Below are positions 23,200-47,004 of a stretch of 64,000 bases of DNA, in pieces; position 1 is the first letter of the stretch; the number at the start of each line of letters is the position of its first letter. This stretch comes from a virus: IMG/VR virus record IMGVR_UViG_3300044700_000345, positions 16,983 through 80,982 of that record. One strand, 5' to 3'. The notes under the pieces are model-generated. The model ran no database searches and was not told where the DNA came from. It worked only from the letters and a program-made list of their open reading frames with translations. Position numbers and translations under genes: made by a program.

Positions 23200-23224
23200 C
23201 GTCAAGCTGGACGTTAAACGTAGC
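23200..23224 (+). ncRNA. Leader pseudoknot motif, divergent copy 1
   Basis: CGTC-AAGCTG-GACG-TTAAACG-TAGC. Confidence 0.45.
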
Positions 23225-23310
23225 AGACATAGGCTGATGGTCAGCCATGGATAACCTGCTTGGCAGCTGCAATTCAGCAGCGTAAGCCCAAGTGTTCCGA
23301 GGTAACTTCC

Positions 23311-23475
23311 ATGGCTAAGATCATCTACCCCGCCGCTTACTACGTCATCAAAGTTGATGGTGTAATCGTAAAGGTAACTGAGGATGACTCAGTTGCACTT
23401 GATTACATCGTTGACTATCCAGGGCGTGTAACGGTGGATCCCGTAGAACAAGGTAAGTTCTACGGGGAAAGCTGA
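23311..23475 (+). CDS. Small early protein
   Basis: GAGGT SD; MAKIIYPAAYY... Confidence 0.55.
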   Translation: MAKIIYPAAYYVIKVDGVIVKVTEDDSVALDYIVDYPGRVTVDPVEQGKFYGES

Positions 23476-23567
23476 TCCGTTAAAGCGGGTTGGGAGGTGC
23501 AAACCCTCCCACAGCTATTGCCTTCCAGGGAGATAGGCACCCTACACACAGGAGTAATCCCGTGATC

Positions 23568-23771
23568 ATGTCATCAAAGCAAGTTGGATATTTAGCTGTT
23601 GCTATCTATGTAACTGCAGTGACGGGAACTACAGCAGGGATCATGACGTTCGGTGTTGCAAAGTTAGATCAAGCAACGGCACTTCAGTGTCGTACGCATG
23701 ACTGGCCTGTTAACGCACATATGGTTCATATGGACTGGTGTAAGGCCAATAATTACACCACCACCAAGTAA
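23568..23771 (+). CDS. Small early membrane protein
   Basis: AGGAG SD; hydrophobic helix then 'QCRTHDWP...WCKANNY'. Confidence 0.55.
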   Translation: MSSKQVGYLAVAIYVTAVTGTTAGIMTFGVAKLDQATALQCRTHDWPVNAHMVHMDWCKANNYTTTK

Positions 23772-23841
23772 CAAGCGTGATGCCGGGGGATCAAATCCCC
23801 CTACTTGGTATTGCCACACACTGAGTGTGGCTAACAGAACA

Positions 23842-23994
23842 ATGCTACGCAAAGCACTTGCTGCTGCACTGATCGCTACTGCAACTGCAGTAACTAAAGA
23901 TCAGACTAAAGAACGCATTAGTGAAGTTGTTAAAGATGGCAGGCGTAAGCTTGCTATCTGGATACAGCCTAAGGACACACGTCCTATTGTCTAA
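23842..23994 (+). CDS. Small early protein
   Basis: MLRKALAAALIATA... after a structured leader. Confidence 0.5.
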   Translation: MLRKALAAALIATATAVTKDQTKERISEVVKDGRRKLAIWIQPKDTRPIV

Positions 23995-24049
23995 TGTTCC
24001 AGAGGGATGCGTCTCTGTGATAACGCATACATCCCATTGTATTCAACTC

Positions 24050-24250
24050 ATGTCAGCCATCAAGAACGCCTACGTTTGTGTTGTTAACGGTGAGCCAGAG
24101 CTATTTGAGACGCAGCAACAAGCAGAGGATTGTGCCATGGAGCTTAGCTTTGCATGGTACGATGCAAACCTTGATGTACCTGCTCCAAGGCTGGCAGTTA
24201 TGTCAGTGACTAATTGGTTGCAACTGCAATCACGATTAGCGCTTGTCTGA
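24050..24250 (+). CDS. Small early protein
   Basis: MSAIKNAYVCVVNGE... Confidence 0.5.
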   Translation: MSAIKNAYVCVVNGEPELFETQQQAEDCAMELSFAWYDANLDVPAPRLAVMSVTNWLQLQSRLALV

Positions 24251-24339
24251 TGTTTGCACTGAGGGCTTCGGCCCTCTCTGCAGACTTCATTGTCTGCCGT
24301 GGTACATATGTACTACCTACCAACTCTATTCAAATCAAC

Positions 24340-24597
24340 ATGGAAATCTCCTACGTTGAAGAGCTACTTACTCAGCGTGCTAGGCTGCTAGCTCGTCGAG
24401 ACTCTACCAGTGCACACCCGTGCATTGACAGGGAGATCGAAGAGCTTAGGCAACAAGCACTAGAGCTATTCTTTAGGTTCCAGGATGGCATGGCTCAGTT
24501 CTCTGATCTAATGCCCATCTGTATGGTACTAGAGAAACGAGTTAATACCAATCGCGCTTTCCTTAAATGGGAACGTGACTTTGGTATACAGGAATAA
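24340..24597 (+). CDS. Small early protein
   Basis: MEISYVEELL... after AC-rich leader. Confidence 0.55.
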   Translation: MEISYVEELLTQRARLLARRDSTSAHPCIDREIEELRQQALELFFRFQDGMAQFSDLMPICMVLEKRVNTNRAFLKWERDFGIQE

Positions 24598-24822
24598 GTA
24601 ATGGAACACACATTATGGCGCGTGTGGTACCAAGATTCTGTCATAGAGCTTTATGCTTTTACAAAGACAGAAGCTTTGGTTAGAGGCGGAGAGCTACTCA
24701 ATAGATTACCTGTTGAGTTAAGCGTAATACGCATCTACGACTAATAGAAGTCTGCGCTGGGCCAGCGATGGCCCTCCGCAGAACTCACAAGGTTCTGCGC
24801 ACACCCTACCAATGGAGGTTCA

Positions 24823-25128
24823 ATGCTTACCAAGGTTGTTTACAATACTTGTTATGGAGGATTCAGTATTTCACCTGAAGCCTTGACAAGGATGAAAGAG
24901 TTGGGATACACAGGTGACGCTAGTATCTACAACAGATATGCATACTTATATGAGTGTGTTCGTCACAATCCAATCTTAGTGCAAGTTGTAGAAGAACTTG
25001 GCAAGAGGGCAAATAGCCCAGGTTCTGACCTATGTATTGCACAAGTGTTTGGTCCCTATTGTATTGAAGAATACGATGGGTCAGAAACAGTTATGGAACC
25101 AGATGATTACACTTGGATCACACCATGA
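24823..25128 (+). CDS. Conserved phage hypothetical protein
   Basis: 'KVVYNTCYGGFSIS...RHNPILVQVVEELG...IEEYDGSETV', a widespread phage protein pattern; GGAGG SD. Confidence 0.7.
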   Translation: MLTKVVYNTCYGGFSISPEALTRMKELGYTGDASIYNRYAYLYECVRHNPILVQVVEELGKRANSPGSDLCIAQVFGPYCIEEYDGSETVMEPDDYTWITP

Positions 25129-25282
25129 AAATTCAAATGCATCCCATGGATTCATTCAAGTACTACAGCAGTAGAGTCTTGGCCTATGCCATTTTAGTTG
25201 GCATTGTAACTACGGCTTTTGCTACATTGTACAAATCAGATTCTTCTGCAATGTACAAATCAACTACCCACAAAGGTCACTA

Positions 25283-25519
25283 ATGCAAAGTTATGTTGCA
25301 CTTGTTGCCGATATGACAGGGCGTTATGCCCATGTCTACGGCACTGCTATAGACTGGCCTAGCTTCGCTGAACAACTCGAAGAGGTGGGATGTGAAGTAA
25401 TTGAAAACCAGACAGAAGACTATGAGCCTCTCGACGAGCTAACACTTGACGAGTTGCACGAGTACGATGTTGTTACCGTACAAGAACTGATTACTCACAC
25501 TGACGCAGTACTAGCATGA
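25283..25519 (+). CDS. Acidic hypothetical protein
   Basis: 78-aa ORF coupled to neighbours. Confidence 0.55.
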   Translation: MQSYVALVADMTGRYAHVYGTAIDWPSFAEQLEEVGCEVIENQTEDYEPLDELTLDELHEYDVVTVQELITHTDAVLA

Positions 25520-25893
25520 CCACTCAATCCAACATTGATCTCAACACCTGTGTACGAGGGCAGAAGGTTAAGCTTCGTGATGGAAAAATTGTTACATACG
25601 AAGGAGTCATAGATGAAAACGAAATATACACACACGCAGTAAATGGCTACAGCTATACAAGGCGCGGTACTTTTTGGATGGAAGATGATCGTATTAGTCC
25701 CAAGGATGTTGTAGAAATTCTTCCAATGGAAGAAGAACCTGCTAAGCCAACACCAGAGCTAACACATTCAATCACTGATCAGATTGATGTGGTAAACCCA
25801 GATCATGTATCGATCATTCCTCATGAGCATGGGGTAACCATATGTATTAAGAAGGGACTGACAACTATTAGCTGGAGGCATTACAACCATTAA
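25516..25893 (+). CDS. Hypothetical protein, paralog of 28430-28933
   Basis: Shared N-terminus IDLNTCVRGQKVKLRDG vs VDLSTCVPGQKMYLRNG, and DVVEILP. Confidence 0.6.
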   Translation: MTTQSNIDLNTCVRGQKVKLRDGKIVTYEGVIDENEIYTHAVNGYSYTRRGTFWMEDDRISPKDVVEILPMEEEPAKPTPELTHSITDQIDVVNPDHVSIIPHEHGVTICIKKGLTTISWRHYNH

Positions 25894-26006
25894 GTATTGG
25901 TTAGCTTACTGATCTAGCCAATACCTGCCATGTATTGGATGATATGCCAATACATGGCAACCCCCCATGCCCCCATTGTTACAGCCACTACCAAGGTGGA
26001 AGGCTG

Positions 26007-26279
26007 TTATGTAGTCATTGCATCCATACGTGCGTTGTCTAGTTGAATCATTTGCATTGCATGTTCCAAGGGTTTGGGTTGTAGTGATCGTATGTCTTGT
26101 ACAGCACTAGCCCAAAACAATCCAAAGCCTGGTCCACCATCAACCAAATGATCTCCCATTTGATATTTATTGATAACCTTTTTGTCTAATATGTTTTCAC
26201 CATGGGGATGACCTTCGCTTGGATATGCAATCATTCGTTCATTGTTTAACTTTGTAAAATACTTGCCCGCTAAATCCAT
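26007..26279 (-). CDS. LAGKY-motif protein (antisense insert in early region)
   Basis: MDLAGKYF...; AAGGA upstream. Confidence 0.55.
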   Translation of the reverse strand: MDLAGKYFTKLNNERMIAYPSEGHPHGENILDKKVINKYQMGDHLVDGGPGFGLFWASAVQDIRSLQPKPLEHAMQMIQLDNARMDAMTT

Positions 26280-26333
26280 TGTTAATTCCTTGTGTAACTC
26301 TATGTTATTACAAGTTATTAACTGAGTGAAGCC

Positions 26334-26363
26334 CGTCCAGAACCATGACGTTAAACTGGATCA
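26334..26363 (+). ncRNA. Leader pseudoknot motif copy 2
   Basis: CGTC-CAGAACCAT-GACG-TTAAAC-TGGATCA. Confidence 0.7.
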
Positions 26364-26385
26364 TTCCACTTATTCATTCAATCAA

Positions 26386-27282
26386 ATGAACTCAAAACAA
26401 CTTAGAAAAATTGAAGAAACGTTGCCGTATAACTGCAATACTCCAAAGAACTATGTTAAATGGGCAGTGCTTGTGACACGTATTAAGAAAGGCATTAAAT
26501 ATGGTTCAATAATATTAGACCGAATTAGAAGGAACATAATAAAGCGAAAAGATGTAGACAAGTTTACTGACAAAGAGTATAGCGCAATTGCTGTAGCCCT
26601 ACCTATTCTTTTTAAAGTGCCTCCTATTTGTGTACACGAAAACATATTGGATTCATTGTTGCAAACAGCAGTAAAGGAAATGGATATACCAAAACGTTCA
26701 CTGCCTGGATACATTTTTCTTTTGCCGTTAAATGCAAATAAGTTTTTTGAAAATTTCAAATTTAAAAATAACATCCAACTAAATATTAATTCAATTTTTG
26801 TAGATGTTTCAAACACTAAAAATTGCGATTGGTTTCATGTTACACTTTTAACTAAAGATAAAGTTCATTATCGTTATTATTTATGGAGCAAAGCTGGTGA
26901 TTACAGTCACTTTTTAAATCCCTGCATTGAAACTGAAGTATTACTTGAACGTTTGATTAAGAATTTAATTCTTATTTATACGTATGAAACCAAGCAGATA
27001 ACAGAAGAACAAGTTAAGGTGACAACACCAGGCAAAGGATTTACCAAGGACAAAGAAGGTGTTAATAAAGATATGGCATCACCTATTCGTTGGTTAGGCA
27101 AAACGTTTGTCCGCCAACAAACCAAATACTTGTACGCTGCAAACAAATCCAAAGACAATAGTAGAACTGTTGCTTCTCATTGGAGACGCGGACATTGGCA
27201 TACAGTATGTTGTGGTCCCAAACGCAAACAACGTAAACAACAATGGTTTAAACCTGTATTAATTAATACCAATACAAATTAA
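26386..27282 (+). CDS. AT-rich hypothetical protein with C-terminal HWRRGHW motif
   Basis: 'SHWRRGHWHTV...WFKPV' phage motif; start reassigned to ATG 26386. Confidence 0.7.
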   Translation: MNSKQLRKIEETLPYNCNTPKNYVKWAVLVTRIKKGIKYGSIILDRIRRNIIKRKDVDKFTDKEYSAIAVALPILFKVPPICVHENILDSLLQTAVKEMDIPKRSLPGYIFLLPLNANKFFENFKFKNNIQLNINSIFVDVSNTKNCDWFHVTLLTKDKVHYRYYLWSKAGDYSHFLNPCIETEVLLERLIKNLILIYTYETKQITEEQVKVTTPGKGFTKDKEGVNKDMASPIRWLGKTFVRQQTKYLYAANKSKDNSRTVASHWRRGHWHTVCCGPKRKQRKQQWFKPVLINTNTN

Positions 27283-27287
27283 CTACA

Positions 27288-27317
27288 CGTCCAGAACCAT
27301 GACGTTAAACTGGATCA
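27288..27317 (+). ncRNA. Leader pseudoknot motif copy 3 (identical to copy 2)
   Basis: 30-bp exact repeat of 26334-26363. Confidence 0.7.
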
Positions 27318-27343
27318 ACCCATCCACACTCGGAGGTAACTCA

Positions 27344-27535
27344 GTGCAACAACCAGTGTCAACATTTGATCAACCACATGCTGATCATTGGGAAGAACTA
27401 GCCGACATGGCGTACTACCAACGTATGGCCATGCAAGAAGAACTAGATGAAGATGACATTCCACTTGGCTGGCTGACAACCAAGCCATCAGGATGTCAGC
27501 AAACCAACACATCATTACAGGAGGATTGCACTTGA
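27344..27535 (+). CDS. Small acidic protein
   Basis: GGAGG SD then GTG start. Confidence 0.5.
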   Translation: MQQPVSTFDQPHADHWEELADMAYYQRMAMQEELDEDDIPLGWLTTKPSGCQQTNTSLQEDCT

Positions 27536-27981
27536 CCACCAAGGTCCGATCATCTGAGGCACCCGACACTCTTATTGTGTGTATCGGTGTCATCTATTGC
27601 CTCAGCATTCTATTCATCCAACTCATTACGGAGATCGCATCATGGCTCTTACAACGGAACAGCAACTCATTGGCCAAGCCCTTGGCTACGAACCACTCAC
27701 CGAAGAAGAAGCAACCGGACAATACCCTGCCGATGCCGACTTCCAAGACGCGCCGAAGGGCAGCATCCCCAGCACAGGTAACGTCTATCGTACCAAGCGA
27801 GGAGTCCTGCGTTGTTTCTGGATACCAACAGGACGTAACTACACCACTGTCGAGTCCGAAGAACTCACCGGATGGTACGATGTCCCAGACCTTGAAGACA
27901 TCGAAGAGTGGACCTTCGACTCGTGCTGCCCGACCCCGGCGGGTGACGAAGTCGAACATGACCACCCCGATAGCTGGCTGA
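27532..27981 (+). CDS. Possible overprinted membrane protein
   Basis: AGGAGG SD before TTG; hydrophobic segment; overlaps the next gene in another frame. Confidence 0.35.
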   Translation: MTTKVRSSEAPDTLIVCIGVIYCLSILFIQLITEIASWLLQRNSNSLAKPLATNHSPKKKQPDNTLPMPTSKTRRRAASPAQVTSIVPSEESCVVSGYQQDVTTPLSSPKNSPDGTMSQTLKTSKSGPSTRAARPRRVTKSNMTTPIAG

Positions 27982-28001
27982 GAATCCTCAGCTTAGTTTG
28001 A
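27642..28001 (+). CDS. Conserved phage hypothetical protein
   Basis: GGAG SD; C-terminal 'CPTPAGDEVEHDHPDSWLRIL'. Confidence 0.65.
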   Translation: MALTTEQQLIGQALGYEPLTEEEATGQYPADADFQDAPKGSIPSTGNVYRTKRGVLRCFWIPTGRNYTTVESEELTGWYDVPDLEDIEEWTFDSCCPTPAGDEVEHDHPDSWLRILSLV

Positions 28002-28129
28002 TTAACAAACCATTTACCTTTGAAATTTTAATACCAATATGGTATGCTTTCTAGCGTGCTTCCGAAAAGAACCACGTTCTTCTCTCTGGTCAATTCTGAA
28101 ATCCATCCTGTCCCATCGCATTTGACATC

Positions 28130-28390
28130 ATGAGCAACGCACTGTCTGATTTAAGTCCCGCCCAGAAAAAAGTTTTTGATGAATGGTCAGATGCTCACAA
28201 AGCTCATATTGAAACTTATTGTTTATGGTTTGAACTAGGGCAAGCTCTTGTTGTAGCAAATAAAACTCTTGGCATAGCTCGTTTGCATTGTGAGGAGAAG
28301 AATATTCCCGATGAATGCTATGTGGCTGTACATCAAATGGCAGTTGACATCCTGTCTGATTTAACTCCTGCCCAGCAAGAAGAATCCTGA
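28130..28390 (+). CDS. Hypothetical protein
   Basis: 86-aa ORF; LSDL(S/T)PAQ repeated at both ends. Confidence 0.55.
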   Translation: MSNALSDLSPAQKKVFDEWSDAHKAHIETYCLWFELGQALVVANKTLGIARLHCEEKNIPDECYVAVHQMAVDILSDLTPAQQEES

Positions 28391-28429
28391 TCCTCGTTTT
28401 AATTATTATTCACCACCGCATTAACAATC

Positions 28430-28933
28430 ATGACTGTTGACTTGAGCACTTGTGTACCAGGGCAAAAGATGTATCTTCGCAATGGAGATATTGCTACATA
28501 TATTGGAACAGCGCCATACTCATGTCAAATTGATGATCGTACTTACACGGTAAAAGGAGAATATTGTTTATCTGGACAAGGGCCATTTGATGTTGTAGAA
28601 ATTCTCCCGCTAGAAACAATTGAACCAACTACATCTGACAAACATCCAAGCGTTGCATGGTGGGAGTCATGCCCATGGATTACAGACAGGAAACCCACTC
28701 CTTTGGATGGCGATGTGTATGGAAGAGTATACATAAAATCTAGCAAAAACAAAGTGCTTACATCTAATTGGAGTGAGGTTGGCGCTCATGAGAATTGGAT
28801 TCATCTTTGCGGTTGGCAACCTCCTGTACTTACTGACAAAGAGAAAGCATTGGAATTGTTAAACAAACATGAAGGTGTTTGGACACCCACACTACGTGAA
28901 TGGAATGTTATCCGTAAAGGATTAACAGAGTAA
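28430..28933 (+). CDS. Hypothetical protein, paralog of 25516-25893
   Basis: Shared N-terminal domain; 'WITDRKPTPLDGD' segment. Confidence 0.6.
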   Translation: MTVDLSTCVPGQKMYLRNGDIATYIGTAPYSCQIDDRTYTVKGEYCLSGQGPFDVVEILPLETIEPTTSDKHPSVAWWESCPWITDRKPTPLDGDVYGRVYIKSSKNKVLTSNWSEVGAHENWIHLCGWQPPVLTDKEKALELLNKHEGVWTPTLREWNVIRKGLTE

Positions 28934-29107
28934 CTAAATGATTAACTTCATGTGTGCAAGCATTGCTTGCTTAAGTCAATACCTTGGGACTGGTTTAATT
29001 ATGTACCAAGGGCAGAATCAAATTTTGTATCAACGTGCACACCAATTGTACTATTGTGAACGGCAAGATTATGTTTATCGTTGCGACACTGATGCTGCCA
29101 AAATACG

Positions 29108-29572
29108 TTACCAATAACGAGCCTGTGGTAAACGCATAGCATTGATCTCAGCTTGTGCAGCAGCATCACGAGGGTCAACCATTTGAGGTTGGCTTAAAAA
29201 CTGTTGCATGTTTACTGGCTGAATAGACTGTGGACTGTTAAGTTTTGTATCAAACTTTAGGTTGACTTGTGGTTCAGTACTCCCACCAGGAGTAGTGTAG
29301 ATACCGCCTGACAAATCAAACATGCCTTTACCTATAGATGCATTTTGATTTGCAGCATCAATGCCAAATCTAAATCCATTGTTAGCATTGCCAACAATGG
29401 AACCACGAGGATCTATTGTTACAGTCCCAGTGGGATCTTCAAAATTAAATGGTTGACTAACTGCCATGTTAACTAAAGGATTGTTGATTCGTTTATTAAA
29501 TTCAGTAGATGCAACACCAATTCCTTGGTTGACACTATTAAGTAAATTTTGAAATGCTTCTGGACCTGGCAT
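29108..29572 (-). CDS. Late-type hypothetical protein (antisense insert)
   Basis: 154 aa, composition like virion genes; TGaTAGACT -10 box upstream. Confidence 0.55.
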   Translation of the reverse strand: MPGPEAFQNLLNSVNQGIGVASTEFNKRINNPLVNMAVSQPFNFEDPTGTVTIDPRGSIVGNANNGFRFGIDAANQNASIGKGMFDLSGGIYTTPGGSTEPQVNLKFDTKLNSPQSIQPVNMQQFLSQPQMVDPRDAAAQAEINAMRLPQARYW

Positions 29573-29590
29573 ACATCTAATGTTTTAAGT

Positions 29591-29987
29591 AGTCTATCAC
29601 CGGGTTTTGTCAGATAACTACTGACCAACTCTTACCAATCTGTATTGTTTATTGGCGGCAAACGATTTAATACTTCAGCTGGAAGAGATGGAATTGGTCT
29701 TGCTGACGGATAATGTTGAGAATTAAACAAGTTTAATTTATTAATTGTGTCTTGATCGTACGCAAGATCAATCATTGCTTGGTTTTGTTGTGCTTCAGTA
29801 GATCTTGGATTGCTTAAAATCTTTAATGATTGATCTATTCCTTCTTGCATTGTTAATACAGGAATGCTTGGTGATTGATTTAGTCCTTCTTGTATTTTAC
29901 GATTGTATTTGCCGGCCAGTTCCATGCTAAAGTCTTAAGGCTTTAATCAGTCTATCACCGGGTTCTGTCAGATAACTACTGACCAAC
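29591..29987. repeat. 39-bp direct repeat (29591-29629 and 29949-29987) flanking a gene
   Basis: agtctatcaccgggtt(t/c)tgtcagataactactgaccaac, one mismatch. Confidence 0.9.
29632..29925 (-). CDS. LAGKY-motif protein
   Basis: MELAGKYN... Confidence 0.55.
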   Translation of the reverse strand: MELAGKYNRKIQEGLNQSPSIPVLTMQEGIDQSLKILSNPRSTEAQQNQAMIDLAYDQDTINKLNLFNSQHYPSARPIPSLPAEVLNRLPPINNTDW

Positions 29988-30058
29988 CCCCCACACCCCC
30001 GTAAAGATCTACCAGGGAAACCTTTAATCTTTATAGGACTATCCCATTGAATTGACAC

Positions 30059-30385
30059 ATGATTACTTCAAGACTATTCCTTCTCACACTAACTGTTCTA
30101 AGCTGTGTACCAGCACAAGCAAGACCAGTGGTTGCTACTGTTTATCACCAATATTATGACGGTAGACCAGCATATTGCGGTGGAATTTACAGTGATAACA
30201 AGGTGAGTGCTGCACATCCTTGGTTGCCATGCGGCACACGAGTTACTGTGCAACACAAAGGTAGGTCATTGGTTGTTCCAATCACAGATCGATGTGAGTG
30301 TGACAGCATTGACCTAAGCTATCGAGCTGCCAAGATACTGGGTGTTCCAGTGGATGGCATTGCTCGTGTACACATTCATTACTAA
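30059..30385 (+). CDS. RlpA-like double-psi beta-barrel lytic transglycosylase
   Basis: Signal peptide; 'SAAHPWLPCGTRVTV...VPITDR...IDLSYRAAKILG'. Confidence 0.85.
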   Translation: MITSRLFLLTLTVLSCVPAQARPVVATVYHQYYDGRPAYCGGIYSDNKVSAAHPWLPCGTRVTVQHKGRSLVVPITDRCECDSIDLSYRAAKILGVPVDGIARVHIHY

Positions 30386-30392
30386 ACACATC

Positions 30393-39654: not shown

Positions 39655-39689
39655 ATTAGTTTTGCTTATCATTCACTTCATTCAACACC

Positions 39690-40499
39690 ATGCAACTTCT
39701 TAAATTCTCCACAGGTAATGCCAAGCTTGGTAAGCGTTTAATCTTTAGCTTGCCAGCAGGATACTCTTGCCCTAACGCAGGAGTATGTAAGACAATGGCT
39801 GATCGCACCACAGGTAAGATCATGGATCTACCGCAGCAACCTATTGATCCAACTACGGACTATAGGTGCTTTGCTGCCATGGCGGAGGCTATGTATCCAA
39901 ACGTACGTGATGCACGTTGGCACAACTGGGATCTGTTACGTGAGACAATGTATGGCGGTGACTATGGTAGCTACAGAGAATTACAAGGCAAGAGTTATGA
40001 ACAACAGGTTGAGTTGATTGCAGGTCTTATTGAGTTGTCACTACTGGTACAACCAGCGCTTGAAATGTGTCGTGTGCATGAGAGTGGTGACTTCTGGGCA
40101 CGTGCTTACATGGAAGCATGGGCACGTGTTGCTACCAGGTATCCAACTATAAAGTTCTATGCATATACCAAGATGCTTAATGATTGGCTGGCTATACACG
40201 AGAAGATGCCAGCAAACTTTATGTTGACCGCATCGATCGGTGGTATGCTTGACCGTATGATTCCACGCAATCCCGATGTGTTTAAGCGTGTTGCTTATGT
40301 TGTGTACACAGAAGAGGAAGCAGCAGAACTAGGGCTTGAGATTGATCATGACGACAGTCATTGCTTTGGTGACAAGCCATTTGCATTACTGGTCCATAGT
40401 CCACAACGTGCTGGTTCAGAAGCACAGGCTGCTCTTAATGCTCGGCGTAAGCAGGGTAAGTTTACTGGTTACAACAAGAACAAGAAAGTTCGTACGTAA
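39690..40499 (+). CDS. GP88-family protein (radical-SAM-like Cys motif)
   Basis: 'GNAKL...FSLPAGYSCPNAGVC...CFA...RVHESGDF...FYAYTK'. Confidence 0.7.
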   Translation: MQLLKFSTGNAKLGKRLIFSLPAGYSCPNAGVCKTMADRTTGKIMDLPQQPIDPTTDYRCFAAMAEAMYPNVRDARWHNWDLLRETMYGGDYGSYRELQGKSYEQQVELIAGLIELSLLVQPALEMCRVHESGDFWARAYMEAWARVATRYPTIKFYAYTKMLNDWLAIHEKMPANFMLTASIGGMLDRMIPRNPDVFKRVAYVVYTEEEAAELGLEIDHDDSHCFGDKPFALLVHSPQRAGSEAQAALNARRKQGKFTGYNKNKKVRT

Positions 40500-40581
40500 A
40501 ATTGTGGCTATGTTAACACTGTCCTAATTTTCTTACACAACTTCTAGATGTGTTAACATTAGCCAGACTTCTTTTACATCC

Positions 40582-40815
40582 ATGAGCTACATCATTGTTA
40601 CACAGGAGACAGACATGCCCTACGCAGTTAGGGCTTGTTCTGACAGTAACAGTTTTAAGTTGATTCCACTAGACTCTGATGTAGCAATAAACAAGATTTA
40701 TTCGCATCCGCATCGAGCGGGAGCACAACAAATCTTAACTTGGATTAATAAGAATGACCCAGCTCTCACCAGTCAAAACCTCTCAATTCAAGATGAAGCC
40801 CGATTCAGAAAATGA
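40582..40815 (+). CDS. Hypothetical protein
   Basis: 77-aa ORF overlapping polymerase start. Confidence 0.5.
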   Translation: MSYIIVTQETDMPYAVRACSDSNSFKLIPLDSDVAINKIYSHPHRAGAQQILTWINKNDPALTSQNLSIQDEARFRK

Positions 40816-42619
40816 ATCTTGGCTGGTATTTGATTTGGAATCAGATGGATTGTATGACGATGTAACGGTCATCCATTGCATTGTCATACATGACATACAA
40901 ACAAACCAAACACACAAGTATGGACCCACTAACATCGCTGCTGCTCTTAAGCATCTTGCTACCGCAGATGTTTTAATAGGGCAGAATATTCTGTTCTATG
41001 ACATTCCAGTAATTCAAAAACTTTTCCCTGATACTGCAAAGTTTCAGGGAAGAATTATTGACACACTCATTTGTACACAACTCATTTGGCCCAAGGAGGT
41101 TCTCTATGATCTCGACACAGAACAATATCCGGAGGTACCAAAGGGCCTCAAGGGTAGAGCCGGCCTTAAAGCGTGGGGTTACCGCCTCTCCAATTACAAG
41201 ATTGAGTTCAAAGATTTTAGTGAGTACTCCGAAGAGATGCTTTTATACTGTGAGCAGGACGTTAGGGTCACTCTTCAACTTTTTCAACTCATCCAGAAAC
41301 AAAACTATGCGGAGTCGGCGCTTAAGTTGGAACATGACTTTGCTCTTGCAATTAATAAGCAAGTGCGAGCAGGTTTTCCTTTTGATGTGGATGCATGTCT
41401 TGATCTGGTGGATGATCTCAGAAGAAAGAAAGATGAACTCCATGTCAAGGTGATGGAAGTATTCCCACCTATCAAACAAGAGTCAGTGTTTGTACCAAAG
41501 GTAAACAATAAAGCACGCGGGTATATTAAAGGTGAGCCATTTACCAAAGTAAGATATCAAGAATTTAATCCTGGTTCTCGCCCTCAAATTGTTAGTAGGC
41601 TCAAGGGTAAGTATGGGTGGGTACCAGAGGAGCTAACTGATAAAGGTAATCCAATTCTTGATGACGAAGTATTGAGTGCATTAGATTATCCAGAGGCTAA
41701 AGTGTTGGGTGAATATTTGACTATCAGTAAACGACTAGGACAGATTGCTGATGGTCAAAAAGCTTGGCTTAAATATGTAAACAATCAAGACTCATGTATG
41801 CATGGTGAGGTTGTAACTAATGGTTGTATTACTGGACGTTGCGCACACCGTAATCCAAACATGGGTCAGGTACCAGCATCCTATAGCCCGTATGGTAAAG
41901 AATGCAGGAGTTTGTTTCATGCACCAGATGGCTGGGACTTATTAGGTGTAGATGCCAAGGCATTGGAGTTACGTTGTCTTGGTGGATATCTCGCCCTATG
42001 GGATGACGGTGAATATGGCAACCTTGTGACAGATGAATCAGTTGACATTCATGTATACAACCAAGAAAAGTTTGGTGTGCCTACCAGGGATATTGCCAAG
42101 CGTTTGATTTATGCAATGCTCTACGGGTGTGGTAATGAGAAAGCTGGTGGCATTGTAGATGCTGAAGAGAAAGATCCTATGCGTCTAAAAGAATTGGGAC
42201 GTAATGCAATCAATGGTTTTGTAAATGGTGTGCCAGCGCTTAAACAATTGAAGAACAAGTTGGCAAGTGCTATACAAGAACGTGGATACCTGCGTGGATT
42301 AGATGGGCGTGCATTGTTTTGTAGGTCAGACTTTAGTGCATTAAATGTATTGCTCCAGGGATCAGGTGCTGCCCTCATGAAACAAGTGGTGATTAATATT
42401 CACAATAACCTTGAGGGCAAAGGGTTAGTGCATGGTCGTGACTGGATCCAGCACGCCATGATTCATGATGAGATTCAACTGTCTTGTCCCAAGAATTACA
42501 CAGCCTTGGTCAAGGAGCAGGCGTTGTTAGCCTTCCCGCAAGCGCAACAATTCTTTGCATTCCAATGTGAAATAGAAGGCGATGCTAAGGTAGGCTGGTC
42601 TTGGGATCAGACTCACTAA
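40793..42619 (+). CDS. polA: DNA polymerase family A (T7-type) with 3'-5' exonuclease
   Basis: ExoI 'FDLESDG'; motif A 'DAKALELR'; motif B 'RDIAKRLIYAMLYG' (Tyr at 762-equivalent); motif C 'HDEIQ'. Confidence 0.95.
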   Translation: MKPDSENESWLVFDLESDGLYDDVTVIHCIVIHDIQTNQTHKYGPTNIAAALKHLATADVLIGQNILFYDIPVIQKLFPDTAKFQGRIIDTLICTQLIWPKEVLYDLDTEQYPEVPKGLKGRAGLKAWGYRLSNYKIEFKDFSEYSEEMLLYCEQDVRVTLQLFQLIQKQNYAESALKLEHDFALAINKQVRAGFPFDVDACLDLVDDLRRKKDELHVKVMEVFPPIKQESVFVPKVNNKARGYIKGEPFTKVRYQEFNPGSRPQIVSRLKGKYGWVPEELTDKGNPILDDEVLSALDYPEAKVLGEYLTISKRLGQIADGQKAWLKYVNNQDSCMHGEVVTNGCITGRCAHRNPNMGQVPASYSPYGKECRSLFHAPDGWDLLGVDAKALELRCLGGYLALWDDGEYGNLVTDESVDIHVYNQEKFGVPTRDIAKRLIYAMLYGCGNEKAGGIVDAEEKDPMRLKELGRNAINGFVNGVPALKQLKNKLASAIQERGYLRGLDGRALFCRSDFSALNVLLQGSGAALMKQVVINIHNNLEGKGLVHGRDWIQHAMIHDEIQLSCPKNYTALVKEQALLAFPQAQQFFAFQCEIEGDAKVGWSWDQTH

Positions 42620-42621
42620 CC

Positions 42622-42903
42622 ATGGCCGACTCAATTTCACTTGAACCAGAAGAACTTCGTGACATTATTAAAGGAAACATTCCTGTCCGCAAGTGTCCTG
42701 ATTGCTTAGGTGAAGGAGAAAGTTGGACACTTCACTATGTTCTTGCTAATGATCCTGATGAAGACAATGAACAGTTTAAAGATGTAAGTTCACAATTTGC
42801 TGCTGATTTTAATGAAGATGATTTACCGCCAGAGTATTCTGACGGCGCATGTCTTTCGTATGATTGTGAAACTTGTTCCACAGTTGGTTATGTATGGAAT
42901 TAA
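42622..42903 (+). CDS. Zn-finger acidic protein
   Basis: CPDC...CETC. Confidence 0.55.
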   Translation: MADSISLEPEELRDIIKGNIPVRKCPDCLGEGESWTLHYVLANDPDEDNEQFKDVSSQFAADFNEDDLPPEYSDGACLSYDCETCSTVGYVWN

Positions 42904-42933
42904 TAGTCTATATCCTTTAACTAATTAAATATT

Positions 42934-42960
42934 CGTCCCAAGTAAGACGTTAAACTGCTC
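42934..42960 (+). ncRNA. Leader pseudoknot motif copy 8
   Basis: CGTC-CCAAGTAA-GACG-TTAAAC-TGCT. Confidence 0.7.
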
Positions 42961-44061: not shown

Positions 44062-44089
44062 CGTCCTGAGTATGACGTAAAACTGCTCA
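44062..44089 (+). ncRNA. Leader pseudoknot motif copy 9
   Basis: CGTC-CTGAGTAT-GACG-TAAAAC-TGCTCA. Confidence 0.7.
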
Positions 44090-44113
44090 CCAACAAACCT
44101 AATCGACCTTGAC

Positions 44114-45136
44114 ATGACTACGAAGACTACTGCACTTGCAACACGTGGAATCAAATCATTTCAGCTTTTTCAATCTAAAGAATTTGTTTCGGGGTACCAA
44201 AACCTCGTCACCATCCAGCCCCTCAACAAGTCTAAGACAAGAGGTTGGTTCGTGCGGAAGTCAGACTTAGATACTTGCGGATGGAGCGCAACTGAAGATC
44301 AATTTGATAAAGGTTCAGTTATCTGGAACTACAAGCAGACTTTTGGTATGGCTCCCAACACTTCAATTGAAGAAGGACTCAATTTCACTGAGCCTAGAAT
44401 TCAAGTGCTTCTACGTTCTCCCCTCATGGTTGAGGAAACAACTGGGATGCGTATGACCATTGGTACGTTTGACAATCCCGATGTCAAAGATCTATGGGAT
44501 GCTGACAAGGCTGCCGCTGATCTTTCCAACAGCAAAGGTGAGATGTACAAACGTAAGTTCAGTGTGCGTACCAAGTATCTTGTGTATGTCCTTAACAAGG
44601 ATAATGTACGTGCCCATAAGATTCCTATGGTGCTAACACTGAAGGGATTGAATGGTACTGATGCAGCTGAAAAGATCAAGCTGTATGAAAAAGAAATGTC
44701 CAAGTGTCTTAGCAAAGCACTATCAGTTGAAGTCCCACTTTCATTCAATGAAAAGTTCTATGCAACTACCGTATTTACTCCGCTACTTGTCAACGACATG
44801 CGCGGCGCCAACAACGTTGAGATCTGTGCAATTGAATCTTTTAATATACCTGATTACAGCACAGAAGAAGCCGCCATCGAATCATTGAATCGCATGTCGA
44901 TTCCTGATGAAGATCGTGAATCAACTTGGAAATTCCAAGAGTTGTTTGCTGATTACATCAATCAACATTCCAAGCAGGATGCTGACAAGCTAGGTGGTGC
45001 CTATGGAATTAAAACAGGTGTAGAAATACTTCCTGTTGCCAGGGGAACTGACCGTGCAATGTTGCAACCAGCAAGTGATGTAGAGGATGGGATGATTTCC
45101 TATGCTTCTATCACTGGAGAAGACAGCTCACTTTGA
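44114..45136 (+). CDS. DUF5895-like protein (possible ssDNA-binding/annealing)
   Basis: 'KYLVYVLNKDN..AHKIPMVLTLKG' resembles cyanobacterial DUF5895 proteins; lies in replication module. Confidence 0.5.
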   Translation: MTTKTTALATRGIKSFQLFQSKEFVSGYQNLVTIQPLNKSKTRGWFVRKSDLDTCGWSATEDQFDKGSVIWNYKQTFGMAPNTSIEEGLNFTEPRIQVLLRSPLMVEETTGMRMTIGTFDNPDVKDLWDADKAAADLSNSKGEMYKRKFSVRTKYLVYVLNKDNVRAHKIPMVLTLKGLNGTDAAEKIKLYEKEMSKCLSKALSVEVPLSFNEKFYATTVFTPLLVNDMRGANNVEICAIESFNIPDYSTEEAAIESLNRMSIPDEDRESTWKFQELFADYINQHSKQDADKLGGAYGIKTGVEILPVARGTDRAMLQPASDVEDGMISYASITGEDSSL

Positions 45137-45397
45137 TGTAACCTCTGGGTTGGTAATAGTTGTATCATCTATAACAACATTGTTAAAGATGTGTATATCT
45201 TTTACCAGCCCTCTGATTACGCCCTGTCTTGTGGTTGCAATGGTTACCAAGAGTGTTGCAATCTCACGTAGTTCTTTGACTGATGTGGATTCTTGAATCA
45301 ATCTTTTGATTTTTTCTTCCCAGAACTTATCAGTAAGAGTGGGCTCTATGTCAAACTTACTGAGGGGGACATAGGTACCAGATTCAAGCTCTTCCAT
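45128..45397 (-). CDS. nblA: NblA-like phycobilisome degradation adaptor
   Basis: 'EPTLTDKFWEEKIKRLIQE...ELREIATLL...RQGVIRGLVKD' helix-hairpin pattern; own TAGACT box. Confidence 0.5.
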   Translation of the reverse strand: MEELESGTYVPLSKFDIEPTLTDKFWEEKIKRLIQESTSVKELREIATLLVTIATTRQGVIRGLVKDIHIFNNVVIDDTTITNPEVTSK

Positions 45398-45462
45398 GTC
45401 AGTCAGGGTTTTGTTTAGTCTACAGCCTACTCCATTTCAACTCAACCACTTAATCTGTATCA

Positions 45463-46410
45463 ATGACTACACTTTTAAATGAAACGCTCAACACTGCTCA
45501 GTCTTCAATTTATTCTCGTACTAACATATCTCGTGCTTTCCCTGGTGTTGATGACACAGGGATTAGCGACATCTCTTTACTTGACACTAATGTTGTTGTG
45601 CGTCGGGATGATAATACTACTCAGTGTTATGATCGCGCACTAATCAAGCAAGCTTACCTTGACTACACATTCAGACTCAAAGATTTCTTTTCCTATCTCG
45701 GAGCAAACTACCGTGGCCCATCCATTTGGCACAGGAACGCCTATGTCATTTTTAAGGGGTGGAATTATGTCCATAGCTTGGGATATCTCACTGCTTCCGC
45801 TAAGCTTCAGACGACGTGGGCTGACAAATTTATTCACATCAAAGACAAGACACGCTTGGAGACGTTACTTCAATCTGACCAGACTGATCTGGGTCATCTT
45901 ATTGCTCCGGACGGCTGGCGAGCTGAGTCACTACCTATTGATATGGAGTCTGAGTTTGGAGAGGAAACTAATGGCAGTGGAGTACAAACACTGGCGCCGT
46001 ATTGCTCGTGTGGATCGTTTACCAGGCAGTTAAATACCTTGGCTGATTTCCAGGCTGAGATAGAGGGATACAAGCCGTGGTGCATTCACCTTACTTGGTT
46101 TAACAAGTATCGTGAGCTGCTTGCCAAGCGCACAGACGTACGTAATAGCGCACGTGGTGGAGTTAGTGAGAAATGTGTAGCGTGGTGGTACGCTCCTCCA
46201 AGTGACAGCACTAGTGATGGACGGTTTGTATTGCTGCACACTCAGTCAGGATCCATGGCGCCGCTGACGCATTGGCGGTCGTACAAGCCACGTACTGTAT
46301 TTACACAACACGATGCCTGGACTTTGTTTGACAGTATGATGGATGCGGGTTACGTCCCGTTTCCAGGTACGGCCCTTCCTCAACTAGCCTCTGCTATTAA
46401 AAAGAAATGA
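45463..46410 (+). CDS. SWIM zinc-finger protein
   Basis: 'YCSCGSF...WCIHL' (CxC...CxH). Confidence 0.65.
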   Translation: MTTLLNETLNTAQSSIYSRTNISRAFPGVDDTGISDISLLDTNVVVRRDDNTTQCYDRALIKQAYLDYTFRLKDFFSYLGANYRGPSIWHRNAYVIFKGWNYVHSLGYLTASAKLQTTWADKFIHIKDKTRLETLLQSDQTDLGHLIAPDGWRAESLPIDMESEFGEETNGSGVQTLAPYCSCGSFTRQLNTLADFQAEIEGYKPWCIHLTWFNKYRELLAKRTDVRNSARGGVSEKCVAWWYAPPSDSTSDGRFVLLHTQSGSMAPLTHWRSYKPRTVFTQHDAWTLFDSMMDAGYVPFPGTALPQLASAIKKK

Positions 46411-46628
46411 AATTCAACACTGGCGAATGGATTTTTCCTGTCTGGTTTGCAATGGTCTTTGCCGTTATTACGATTGGGCCAACCACTTTTATTATAAAAA
46501 CAACTACCACTCAACAAGCACTTAATCAAGAGTGCAAAACTAACTACAGCTTTCTTCAAGTTGCTGTAGCAGGAGACAACCTGTCTCGCCTTTGCCAAAT
46601 TAAACAACAAACCATCACAATCAAATGA
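46407..46628 (+). CDS. Small membrane protein
   Basis: N-terminal TM helix. Confidence 0.55.
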   Translation: MKFNTGEWIFPVWFAMVFAVITIGPTTFIIKTTTTQQALNQECKTNYSFLQVAVAGDNLSRLCQIKQQTITIK

Positions 46629-46801
46629 CTGACTTTCTAAACTTTAAAGATTCTCAAAAACAAATTATCTGTCCTAAACACGGTACCCACAAGCACTACA
46701 TCAGCAGCAGCATTAAATATTATGAAGGTAACTAGTGCATGTTGTGCTGGCTAAAAAGTCTTGGCCCCTCTCTTCCAACTATTGAGCAATCAGATGACTG
46801 A
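46625..46801 (+). pseudogene. Small Cys/His protein with in-frame TAG
   Basis: ICPKHGTH...EGN*CMLCWL; TAG at 46733-46735, frame stays open afterwards. Confidence 0.55.
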
Positions 46802-46949
46802 CACACAATTTGACCATCTCTGGGATCTGATTGATTCGCTAAGCGATCGTATTGGAGACCTTGAGACGGAAGTGCGAGGACTAAACTGCCGAGCCGATAA
46901 GGTTGAACACGAAATCAACAGATTGGATTGGTGGATTAGCCATGACTAA
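46794..46949 (+). CDS. Small coiled-coil protein
   Basis: MTDTQFDHLWDLI... Confidence 0.5.
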   Translation: MTDTQFDHLWDLIDSLSDRIGDLETEVRGLNCRADKVEHEINRLDWWISHD

Positions 46950-46976
46950 TCAACACTTTAACAAAAAGTAAACCTA

Positions 46977-47004
46977 CGTCCTAAGCATGACGGTAAACTG
47001 CTTA
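46977..47004 (+). ncRNA. Leader pseudoknot motif copy 10
   Basis: CGTC-CTAAGCAT-GACG-GTAAAC-TGCTTA. Confidence 0.7.

Follow-up and report, generated by a model that had tools for sequence, protein, structure and literature searches.

The genome of a cyanophage carries nine canonical copies of a small H-type pseudoknot, a number far beyond chance, and the element acts as sense-strand RNA, not as a plain promoter. The best reading, to which we assign a probability of about 0.5, is that the knots would be protein-independent roadblocks to 5′–3′ decay by RNase J, giving each cistron a stable 5′ end. The fold itself may, at similar odds, be a form, in bacterial viruses, of the coremin-type exoribonuclease-resistant RNA known from plant viruses. 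If true, this suggests that bacterial viruses could shield their messages as plant RNA viruses do.

Copies, strand and gene context

The analysed window comprises 64,000 nt (positions 16,983–80,982 of IMGVR_UViG_3300044700_000345; whole genome 80,982 nt). When the 80,982-nt genome was searched with the regular expression YGTC-N8-9-GACR-NNAAAC, the nine canonical copies were recovered, all on the plus strand and all within the window, with none in the 16,982 nt of genome outside it; on the minus strand, the sole match in the whole genome is palindromic and lies within an ORF at about 18600. A search for GACRTTAAAC with at most one mismatch returned 19 matches in the window compared to 7.9 expected (s.d. 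3.3), a count reached in 0 of 100 shuffles. Ten of these 19 are the sites of a first-pass annotation of this DNA, and all ten lie on the plus strand, as it had stated. Its count of ten dispersed copies stands for nine, listed here from the first base of stem 1 (S1; stem 2 is S2), with substitutions in coremin numbering (see below):

26334–26362, plus strand: copy 1, S1 CGTC/GACG, 9-nt loop, spacer TTAAAC, S2 3′ strand TGGATC; ATG 26386 opens a 298-codon ORF with no assigned function; outside the training set of the covariance model, partial match at 19.3 bits (E 0.011)
27288–27316, plus strand: copy 2, same motif letters as copy 1; the preceding ORF's stop ends 5 nt before S1; GGAGG, then GTG 27344 (63 codons, GTG start read by eye), lie downstream
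31711–31738, plus strand: copy 3, 8-nt loop, only 3 contiguous S2 pairs; ATG 31756, 73-codon ORF
32219–32246, plus strand: copy 4, S2 GGTCA/TGACC; the preceding ORF's stop ends 5 nt before S1; ATG 32279, 134-codon ORF
32693–32722, plus strand: copy 5, covarying S1 TGTC/GACA, 9-nt loop, 7-bp S2; ATG 32750 starts a PcfJ-like protein of 586 aa; outside the training set, 23 bits (E 0.0014)
39628–39654, plus strand: copy 6, heads a GP88-family gene (ATG 39690)
42934–42959, plus strand: copy 7, heads the gene of an SSB-domain protein (ATG 42981)
44062–44089, plus strand: copy 8, spacer TAAAAC (U14A), heads a DUF5895 gene (ATG 44114)
46977–47004, plus strand: copy 9, spacer GTAAAC (U13G); ATG 47032, 41-codon ORF beginning MFEF
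23200–23219, plus strand: doubtful, degenerate copy, CGTC and a 6-nt loop followed by GACGTTAAAC
within 26363–47031, plus strand: nine short leaders of 17–34 nt each, from pseudoknot to start codon

The site at 23200 is doubtful as a member of the motif: it has only CGTC and the 10-mer in common with the canonical copies, lacks the conserved loop C and an in-register stem 2, and receives just 10.3 bits (E 1.6) from the covariance model. Start codons (eight ATG and one GTG) follow all nine canonical copies, at a measured 23–40 nt after U19 where about 20–35 nt had been proposed. The assignment of these genes to an early or middle class is plausible because the motif block holds replication genes.

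Related phages show the same strand preference. Across 80 related contigs (1.29 Mb), 215 matches to the motif fall on the gene strand and 0 on the opposite strand, and a sequence-free scan of the relatives (any 4-bp S1, NNAAAC, S2 of at least 4 bp) yielded 199 gene-strand vs 11 opposite-strand sites. Orthologous positions of copy 6 are present in relatives, and an indel joint in relatives (42617 to 42934) ends precisely at the S1 start of copy 7. The leaders of relatives are C/A-rich and poor in G (G 5.5% vs 21.4% background; C 35.7% vs 22.5%), with a Shine–Dalgarno (SD)-like 4-mer in 2 of 157. The motif usually follows closely on the stop codon of the preceding ORF.

A covarying H-type pseudoknot

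Within the window, stem 1 reads CGTC/GACG in eight of nine copies and TGTC/GACA at 32693. Contiguous pairing between the loop and the downstream bases spans, in coordinate order, 3, 3, 3, 5, 7, 5, 4, 6 and 6 bp; among the three copies with only 3 contiguous pairs, those at 26334 and 27288 pair at five of six stem-2 positions with one A–A mismatch (read by eye). An alignment of 145 sequences, six of them window copies and the other 139 from relatives, has 93.1% of its cells paired vs 84.7% in shuffles, and the covariation score is 0.324 vs 0.174 in shuffles (0 of 500 reach 0.324), slid controls remaining at or below 0.092. Pair switches are frequent in stem 2 (AU75/GC59; GC102/UA18/AU16; GC61/AU34/GU18) and present at the first pair of stem 1 (CG129/UA7/AU3/GC1). 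The covariation first noted in a handful of copies, in stem 1 as well as between the loop and the bases downstream, holds in the larger alignment.

Other parts of the element hardly vary. The loop-closing C–G pair is kept in 143 of 144 rows, C is the first loop base in all rows, and 141 of 144 rows pair the loop A with U19, the next pair using position 20. With S1 and S2 as sole anchors, 123 of 123 sites found carry the 6-nt spacer NNAAAC, in which only positions 13 and 14 vary. Since both stems covary in relatives, with many strand-specific G–U pairs, and matches lie on the gene strand only, the element is a sense-strand RNA pseudoknot. The preference for RNA structure over a plain promoter, voiced in the first-pass annotation, is supported by the covariation, by the G–U pairs and by a search for a conserved −35/−10 upstream of the motif, which found none.

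Each copy would be transcribed within a long sense-strand mRNA and fold into a compact knot of about 28–30 nt, with CGUC/GACG as stem 1, a single C as L1, and a stem 2 of 3–7 bp that joins the hairpin loop to U19 and the bases after it. In the 6-nt linker, the invariant AAAC probably runs along stem 1.

Coremin and a proposed exonuclease roadblock

Coremin is an Xrn1-resistant RNA of plant viruses, e.g., xrRNA-C of BNYVV RNA3, with a Watson–Crick variant, xrRNA-WCC; the passages drawn on here number it C1 G2 U3 C4 [C5 G6 A7 A8] G9 A10 C11 G12 U13 U14 A15 A16 A17 C18 U19 A20 C21 (PMC6546385, PMC10520033, PMC10321173). The phage motif is identical at C1–C5 and G9–U19 (CGUC-C...GACG-UUAAAC-U), and both have a 4-bp first stem (hp1 in coremin) with a C–G closing pair. 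According to the same passages, coremin requires a pyrimidine–purine closing pair and a pyrimidine at position 5, and compensatory mutants of the Watson–Crick form prove a 7–19/6–20 register (PMC6546385, PMC10520033, PMC10321173), the register seen in the phage motif (loop A with U19, next base with position 20). As described in parts of two of these papers, U13U14 can be changed to AA, whereas Xrn1 no longer stalls when A16U, A17U, C18A or U19C/A is introduced or U13 is deleted (PMC6546385, PMC10520033); the tolerated positions 13 and 14 are those that vary in the phage motif, where AAAC stays constant. Both systems have tandem copies, and phage contigs of at least 15 kb carry 20 hexaloop copies matching the coremin consensus (CGNNAU/A plus GACGUUAAACUA), one of which precedes an SSB-like gene that begins MNF.

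The two elements also differ. Phage hosts are bacteria, without Xrn1, and the carriers are dsDNA phages, their elements sitting in 5′ leaders or between cistrons whereas the coremin passages place it in 3′ UTRs. The phage loop has 8–9 nt and no YG..AD consensus, leaving the window copies without two features that those passages give as required, and position 20 is G in the phage but A in coremin. The phage element, known here from sequence, has a stem 2 of 3–7 Watson–Crick pairs and no second hairpin (hp2) after the window copies; the longer stem 2 would replace that hairpin.

The first-pass annotation had suggested three roles: blocking a 5′–3′ exonuclease, enhancing translation or binding a phage factor. 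Equality of the conserved core and stem-2 register with those of an experimentally characterised RNA lends strong indirect support to the first, a putative exonuclease-blocking role. In the passages cited, Xrn1 stalls one nucleotide before coremin hp1, independently of other proteins, the nuclease being the only one needed in vitro (PMC6546385, PMC10520033); the assays use Xrn1, and RNase J has 0 mentions in PMC10321173 and none in the passages of PMC6546385 and PMC10520033. In vitro, a flaviviral xrRNA stops bacterial RNase J1 as well, acting as a general mechanical block. The flaviviral and dianthovirus/luteovirus xrRNAs resemble the phage element in this proposed job, a protein-independent mechanical block to 5′–3′ exoribonucleases, but are unrelated larger folds (three-way junction, ring) with no sequence similarity to it.

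In such a pathway, an endonuclease cut, tRNA processing or removal of the 5′ pyrophosphate would expose an upstream 5′ monophosphate, and the host 5′–3′ exoribonuclease RNase J would trim the transcript up to the knot, unable to thread it. The outcome would be a stable mRNA with the pseudoknot as its 5′ end, followed by an unstructured leader of about 20 nt, poor in G and without an SD, just enough for ribosome loading at the start codon. Nine knots would thereby provide nine cistrons of the replication block with protected 5′ ends without promoters of their own. The spacings to the upstream stop codon and to the ATG, given below, and the lack of a conserved −35/−10 upstream suit this reading too. 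In one sequence with the motif (L058), it directly adjoins a tRNA-Met at that gene's 3′ end, and in another (L303) it lies 14 nt before a tRNA-Lys; tRNA processing at such sites would leave a monophosphate 5′ end.

Prophage-like DNA carries the motif too, chiefly in Bacillota and in other taxa with RNase J. The 26 bacterial assemblies with the motif include 18 of Bacillota type, three Patescibacteria, and one each of Synechococcus, Anaerolineales, Bradymonadales, Bacteroidetes and unclassified, with no beta- or gammaproteobacteria by title. RNase J scored above the curated cut-off in four of the five less obvious hosts, and was not found above it in the one motif-bearing Bacteroidetes MAG. Because RNase J is common, this host association is weak evidence.

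Alternative roles and similar RNAs

The knot could instead target the ribosome, as an intercistronic insulator or loading platform that sets the initiation rate of each cistron by halting ribosomes or post-termination complexes from the upstream ORF and keeping the 20-nt SD-less leader single-stranded; we consider this unlikely. At 73 of 176 sites exactly 5 nt separate the end of the upstream stop codon from S1, a spacing at which a structure meets the ribosome at its mRNA entrance while that codon is being decoded, and the distance from U19 to ATG is fixed at 25–28 nt in 108 of 184 sites, with leaders nearly devoid of SD-like 4-mers as noted above. Coremin acts on ribosomes too, stalling scanning ribosomes and stimulating −1 frameshifting, with a frameshift screen in E. 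coli, in the passages concerned (PMC6546385, PMC10520033, PMC10321173), and a ribosome-directed role therefore fits the 5-nt spacing equally well. However, only two of the eight window copies with an upstream ORF have this gap (a third has 6 nt), and the 73 sites are partly orthologous and therefore not independent. The motif moreover adjoins tRNA genes, and in Bacillota it also heads long structured or SD-containing leaders with no upstream ORF ending nearby.

An operator through which one phage or host protein co-regulates the nine genes, in the style of a translational repressor, appears quite improbable. Nine copies ahead of replication-type genes in a single genome, with an invariant sequence-specific core and a freely varying stem 2, would suit such a role, but the core is common to plant RNA viruses, cyanobacterial phages, prophage-like DNA of Bacillota and Patescibacteria, and a giant-virus MAG contig, carriers with no obvious common specific factor. 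Coremin, in the passages cited above, needs the nuclease only, and no candidate binding protein emerged.

A DNA promoter with TAAACT as its −10 box and transcription starting just behind the motif is very improbable. TAAACT agrees with TAnnnT, the copy at 32693 was called sigma-70-like (TTGACT-17-TAAACT), and the most distant relatives have, at the same place ahead of the GP88 gene and some 30 nt from its ATG, a hairpin and a −10-like hexamer (by eye). That copy, however, is the only one of six in the scanned range (22100–42000) to be called promoter-like, such calls fall below chance overall (33 vs 43.2), and no −35 signal lies upstream of the motif. Covariation with G–U pairs in a would-be spacer and discriminator has no promoter explanation, and the same sequence works as RNA in RNA viruses, as the coremin passages describe.

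The smallest riboswitch classes resemble the knot in size and in H-type topology with an A-rich linker, and the Pistol consensus likewise combines a hairpin with an AUAAAU-type linker and a loop pseudoknot; in L125, two copies lie about 230 nt from a true Pistol. Yet a small ligand-sensing riboswitch or self-cleaving ribozyme is hardly credible, as no Rfam riboswitch or ribozyme matches any copy at E up to 10, no ribosome-binding site falls within stem 2, the sequence has no equivalent of P3 or a cleavage site, and the coremin passages report no self-cleavage despite control lanes without Xrn1.

No Rfam family reaches threshold at any copy in cmscan. STAXI (RF01728), a repeated phage/plasmid pseudoknot to which the first-pass annotation had tentatively related the motif, and Pistol (RF02679), whose hairpin loop forms a pseudoknot after its linker, were both rejected as its identity, neither model matching any copy at E up to 10; the phage element differs from them in having no P2/P3 or cleavage site. 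The luteoviral −1 frameshifting pseudoknots of BWYV and PLRV are of similar size, with an A-rich loop lying in the minor groove of stem 1, but in the part of Dilweg et al. (PMC10321173) that treats them they do not stall Xrn1 even when given hp2, and the phage element is intercistronic and has no slippery site. GP20-b (RF03003), which lies upstream of phage GP20 genes, is described as an uncharacterised candidate cis-regulatory RNA (PMC10690425). Only its 5′ half (gGuC...GgCgUAAAAg, with a strand pairing back into the loop) resembles the motif, its second hairpin and conserved tail being absent from the window copies. The cmscan alignments place phage S1, spacer and S2 on this 5′ half, with 11.2 bits at copy 44062 and 17.8 and 25.5 bits at Enterococcus loci, all below the gathering score of 36.2.

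Nine pseudoknots at the heads of cistrons

The window spans bases 16983–80982 of a virus record of 80,982 nt. Its structural genes, including those for terminase, major head and tail proteins, lie mostly on the minus strand, and a plus-strand block at ~23.2–49.7 kb encodes ThyX, a GP88-family protein, a family-A DNA polymerase, an SSB-domain protein, DUF5895 and a PcfJ-like protein, with a primase-helicase encoded beyond it. DNA comparison turned up one named relative, Synechococcus phage S-EIVl, whose polA is 74% identical over 1.2 kb. A 1031-aa ORF without Pfam or PHROG match stands at the edge of the divergent region (19046–22141, minus strand), and a tRNA-Leu gene (anticodon TAA; 35933–36019, plus strand) sits midway through the replication block, with a strong terminator-like hairpin after it at 36650–36667.

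The 10-mer GACRTTAAAC, allowing up to one mismatch, was found 19 times in the window versus 7.9 expected, a count reached in 0 of 100 shuffles. Ten of these 19 matches, every one on the plus strand, are the sites at which the first-pass annotation had placed ten pseudoknots, and nine of them were recovered as canonical copies by a regular-expression search of the whole genome (positions from the start of stem 1):

26334–26362, plus strand: pseudoknot copy with a 9-nt loop
27288–27316, plus strand: pseudoknot copy with a 9-nt loop
31711, plus strand: pseudoknot copy
32219, plus strand: pseudoknot copy
32693, plus strand: pseudoknot copy with a 9-nt loop
39628, plus strand: pseudoknot copy
42934, plus strand: pseudoknot copy
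44062, plus strand: pseudoknot copy
46977, plus strand: pseudoknot copy

The tenth, at 23200, was not retained, as it has only CGTC and the 10-mer in common with the others, a 6-nt loop and no in-register stem 2, and fails the covariance model (R1, E = 1.6). The same regular expression yielded zero canonical copies in the remaining 17 kb of the genome and, on the minus strand of the whole genome, just one palindrome, within an ORF near 18600. Each canonical copy consists of CGTC (once TGTC), a C, 7–8 variable bases, GACG (once GACA), NNAAAC and TG, with the variable loop complementary to the bases after NNAAAC, and all nine have a 4-bp stem 1 with a C–G closing pair. A start codon follows 23–40 nt 3' of U19 (the U directly after NNAAAC, numbered as in the plant-virus RNA coremin) in all nine, namely ATG in eight and, by reading of the sequence, GTG at 27344 after GGAGG, and the leaders after the knot are unstructured and G-poor. 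The copies at 26334 and 27288 have identical motif letters and different flanking DNA. R1 models stem 2 together with a sequence profile, and its scores of 42–48 bits for six of the nine copies are high by construction because those copies trained it; its independent matches are only the three copies with 9-nt loops (E = 0.0014, 0.011 and 0.011), and it found no additional copy in the window.

The conserved letters were matched at no fewer than 136 loci in IMG/VR. Among the matches listed, 128 of 139 showed at least four contiguous loop–downstream pairs, and at least five pairs formed in 92 of 113 distinct sequences, versus a mean of 37.7 (maximum 50) with re-dealt loops and tails. A sample of 80 loci from relatives (1.29 Mb) was fetched via the GP88 protein to keep the motif itself out of the selection, and contained 215 matches on the gene strand (up to two mismatches to the conserved letters; 196 once double alignments were removed) versus none on the opposite strand. 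In an ungapped alignment of 145 copies with 8-nt loops (A1; 6 from the window and 139 from relatives), 93.1% of pseudoknot cells were paired versus 84.7% in shuffles, and the covariation score was 0.324 versus 0.174 in shuffles (0 of 500 reached 0.324) and no more than 0.092 when partners were slid; many of these sites are orthologous and the cells are not independent events, and we take the signal as real because the slid controls keep this relatedness. Stem-2 pairs switched between AU (75) and GC (59), between GC (102), UA (18) and AU (16), between GC (61), AU (34) and GU (18), and between CG (93), UG (39) and UA (7), while the outer stem-1 pair was CG in 129 rows, UA in 7, AU in 3 and GC in 1, with 2 wobble and 2 broken. 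The frequent G–U pairs would be A–C on the opposite strand, and the structure therefore belongs to the sense transcript. When any 4-bp stem 1 was allowed (with NNAAAC and at least four stem-2 pairs), the relatives yielded 199 gene-strand sites versus 11 on the opposite strand, with CGTC/GACG at 160 and TGTC/GACA, AGTC/GACT, GGTC/GACC, AGAC/GTCT and GGAC/GTCC also present. The covarying H-type fold proposed at first pass is thus borne out in a larger alignment, and the element, formed by sense-strand RNA at the head of cistrons, is a conserved pseudoknot of coremin type.

As to position, in the relatives an ATG (ORF of at least 40 codons) begins 25–28 nt from U19 in 108 of 184 sites and 23–40 nt from it in 153, and the stop codon of the upstream ORF ends exactly 5 nt 5' of stem 1 in 73 of 176 sites (5–7 nt in 97). 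G makes up 5.5% of their leaders, against a background of 21.4%, and C 35.7%, and an SD-like 4-mer occurs in just 2 of 157. A sigma-70-type promoter was rejected, since the upstream logo from relatives contains a stop-codon signal only, without −35 or −10, and sigma-70-like calls between 22100 and 42000 numbered 33 versus 43.2 by chance and touched one of the six copies in that range; the earlier view that the motif is no plain promoter agrees with this. Strong plus-strand terminators were found in the same interval solely at 22480–22499 and 36650–36667. Taken together, these observations indicate that the copies are intercistronic elements in long transcripts.

Comparison with coremin and catalogued RNA families

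The motif matched no Rfam family at threshold, and a search of 24 kb at E up to 10 gave no match at any of the copies. The suggested link to STAXI (RF01728) did not hold, with no match at any copy at E up to 10; riboswitch families were set aside on the same searches, as was the Pistol ribozyme (RF02679), which matched no motif copy. A Pistol ribozyme does occur on a 43.6-kb viral contig (L125:16–77; 41.3 bits versus a threshold of 34.5), ~230 nt upstream of two tandem motif copies. The nearest catalogued family is GP20-b (RF03003), an uncharacterised candidate (PMC10690425), a model in which only sequences with the tail and both hairpins can reach the gathering threshold of 36.2 bits: copy 44062 alone aligned to its 5' half, skipping the second hairpin, at 11.2 bits, and two Enterococcus loci with a second hairpin reached 17.8 and 25.5 bits, also below gathering. 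The motif has the first module in common with GP20-b and is not a member. The same 2023 study catalogues more than 10,000 candidate phage RNAs, in which the motif may already sit unnamed; the motif string, "GP88" and "DUF5895" had no match in six of its supplementary files (PMC10690425).

The closest likeness is to coremin, the Xrn1-resistant RNA of plant RNA viruses, printed for BNYVV RNA3 as GUCCGAAGACGUUAAACUAC and numbered C1–C4 (CGUC), loop C5–A8 (CGAA), G9–G12 (GACG), U13–C18 (UUAAAC) and U19, A20 and C21, followed by a second hairpin, hp2 (Dilweg et al. 2023). The phage motif has the same letters at C1–C5 and G9–U19. According to the coremin papers (PMC6546385; PMC10520033; PMC10321173), the first hairpin, hp1, needs 3–5 bp and a pyrimidine–purine closing pair (C–G or U–A); the closing pair is C–G in 143 of 144 A1 rows, with a covarying outer pair, and the phage copies retain the C that coremin requires as first loop base. 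The same papers describe A16–A20 as essential, together with a minimum spacer length, and report that Xrn1 stalling is abolished by A16U, A17U, C18A, U19C/A or deletion of U13, whereas stalling survives a change of U13U14 to AA, and natural variants with U14A or U13C are functional. When a search anchored on both stems allowed spacers of 5–7 nt, all 123 sites had the 6-nt NNAAAC (opposite strand, one site), as TTAAAC (93), TAAAAC (16), CTAAAC (10), GTAAAC (3) or ATAAAC (1), so that only positions 13 and 14 vary, and the window variants at 44062 (U14A) and 46977 (U13G) fall at positions where mutagenesis tolerates change. A15–U19 are identical to coremin with 6 nt before U19, and position 20, paired with the loop, is G in 192 of 215 and A in 11. 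Pairs 7–19 and 6–20 were demonstrated by compensatory mutants in the Watson–Crick coremin (coremin papers); in A1, 141 of 144 rows have the loop A paired with U19, position 20 forms the next pair (CG in 93, UG in 39 and UA in 7), and further pairs covary.

The two RNAs also differ in real ways. Position 20 of the phage motif is G, where coremin has A. Coremin loops follow YGAD (4 nt) or YGNNAD (6 nt), and 7- and 8-nt loops can remain resistant (coremin papers), whereas window loops are 8–9 nt long, with C (a Y) as first base and U, C or A as second. Further, hp2 is described there as strictly necessary for Xrn1 resistance even in the Watson–Crick coremin, and no second hairpin follows the window copies; we infer that a 3–7-bp stem 2 replaces coremin's short stem 2 and stacked hp2. 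Ordinary frameshifting knots do not stall Xrn1 (PMC10321173). A pattern built to the coremin loop consensus (YG-N0-2-AD), whose loops fit by construction, gave 124 matches at no fewer than 118 IMG/VR loci, most on short contigs that may be RNA viruses; among the matches listed, 20, all hexaloops, lie on 19 contigs of 15–159 kb, and one of these (L345) is followed by a gene whose product starts with MNF, as in the SSB-like gene of the window. Upstream of the GP88 gene, stem 1 read by eye is GGAC/GTCC in 16 relatives and GGTC/GACC in 3, their spacers often end in AAACUAC like that of coremin, and some relatives, few in number, have a hairpin ATAAGC-NNN-GCTTAT shortly after stem 2.

Spread across phages and bacterial assemblies

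The cultured phage S-EIVl carries at least five copies, all on the polA strand and with three different stem-1 outer pairs. A stricter 20-base pattern gave 32 matches at 31 loci in 26 bacterial assemblies versus ~2 expected (own arithmetic), 31 of them with at least four stem-2 pairs. Judged from titles, with phyla assigned by us, 18 of these assemblies are of Bacillota type and three are Saccharibacteria/Patescibacteria, with one each from Synechococcus, Anaerolineales, Bradymonadales, Bacteroidetes and an unclassified source, and none of the 26 titles names a beta- or gammaproteobacterium. RNase J is present in Bacillota and cyanobacteria and is not known from beta- and gammaproteobacteria. 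It scored above the curated cut-off in four of the five less obvious assemblies and not in the motif-bearing Bacteroidetes MAG. A viral match (L094) comes from a contig of a giant-virus MAG.

In other phage groups the motif stands before SD-bearing or structured leaders, and tandem copies were found at L109/L110, L125 and L222. Two copies lie beside tRNA genes: one begins at the base after a tRNA-Met gene (L058:226–324, 143-kb contig) and another ends 14 nt before a tRNA-Lys gene (L303:151–259, 35-kb contig). Near non-cyanophage copies, −10 boxes had no preferred position, for which reason the idea that the knot marks the primary 5' end in Bacillota was abandoned. By eye, nine relatives (L173, L179, L186–L188, L190, L192, L194 and L196) have another conserved hairpin, of the CTGGG...GTAAGTCCCAG type, in place of the knot upstream of GP88, with a leader of the same G-poor kind after it. 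In the most distant relatives (L197–L216), this position holds a G+C-rich hairpin and then a −10-like hexamer (TAGGAT, TATACT or TAGACT) ~30 nt before the ATG, with a recurring (T/G)GGCACA-like word often further upstream (by eye).

A possible RNase J stop and a possible role at the ribosome

Coremin needs no protein partner to stop Xrn1, which comes to rest one nucleotide before hp1 (coremin papers). An unrelated flaviviral xrRNA halts bacterial RNase J1, and such folds thus act as general mechanical blocks. By analogy, cuts upstream in the long transcripts would admit RNase J, the knot would halt the enzyme on its way 3', and each of the nine cistrons would keep a stable 5' end ~20 nt ahead of its start codon. 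We tentatively propose, at a probability of roughly 40%, that the coremin fold may be a cross-domain, protein-independent nuclease stop, used also in dsDNA phages and in prophage-like DNA of bacteria bearing RNase J, and that in these phages mRNA 5' ends within long operons would be set not by promoters but by RNase J trimming as far as the knot. Motif copies at tRNA boundaries, where processing makes new 5' ends, are compatible with such a block, and the other hairpin, or hairpin and −10-like box, found before GP88 in distant relatives fits another route to a defined 5' end at a similar distance. Pfam (25 ORFs) and PHROGs (56 ORFs) brought out no phage RNA polymerase or nuclease that would explain the motif.

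The main rival is that the knot is directed at the ribosome. The 5-nt gap between stop codon and stem 1 in 73 of 176 sites from relatives is the spacing expected of a structure at the ribosome's mRNA entrance. Coremin itself, screened in E. coli, also stops ribosomes and stimulates frameshifting (coremin papers). Such a role is compatible with an RNase J block, and the two are not exclusive.

Eukaryotic RNA viruses are known to make exoribonuclease-resistant RNAs, and a counterpart in phages would carry the principle over to bacteria and RNase J. Literature searches found no link of coremin to phages ("coremin" with "phage" gave only an unrelated paper), and no title or abstract opening retrieved for xrRNA with bacteriophage or RNase J concerned a natural phage or bacterial xrRNA. 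If the RNase J reading is true, the phage knot would be the first natural example of an exoribonuclease-resistant RNA that targets a bacterial enzyme, and hundreds of covarying phage copies would give coremin its own long-sought pairing scheme. The 3-D structure of coremin was described as unsolved in 2023, with the pseudoknot deduced from a handful of mutants (coremin papers); the phage copies supply natural covariation for its register, and the phage knot, a more stable 28–30-nt all-Watson–Crick form, is suited to structure determination. The element also suggests how phages with few promoters may endow single cistrons in long operons with a stability and a translation start of their own, and, as a portable unit of ~50 nt (knot and SD-less leader), it would be a useful mRNA stabiliser in cyanobacteria and Bacillota, with S-EIVl as an available cultured system.

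A further observation concerns gene exchange. Related contigs skip 93, 316 and 555 bases of the window (31616–31710, 42617–42934 and 46410–46966), and the skip junctions meet the 5' edge of the motif at 31710 and 42934 and lie 11 nt before a copy at 46966; a loose end was noted at 39627 as well. Swapped gene cassettes thus seem to have the conserved knots at their borders.
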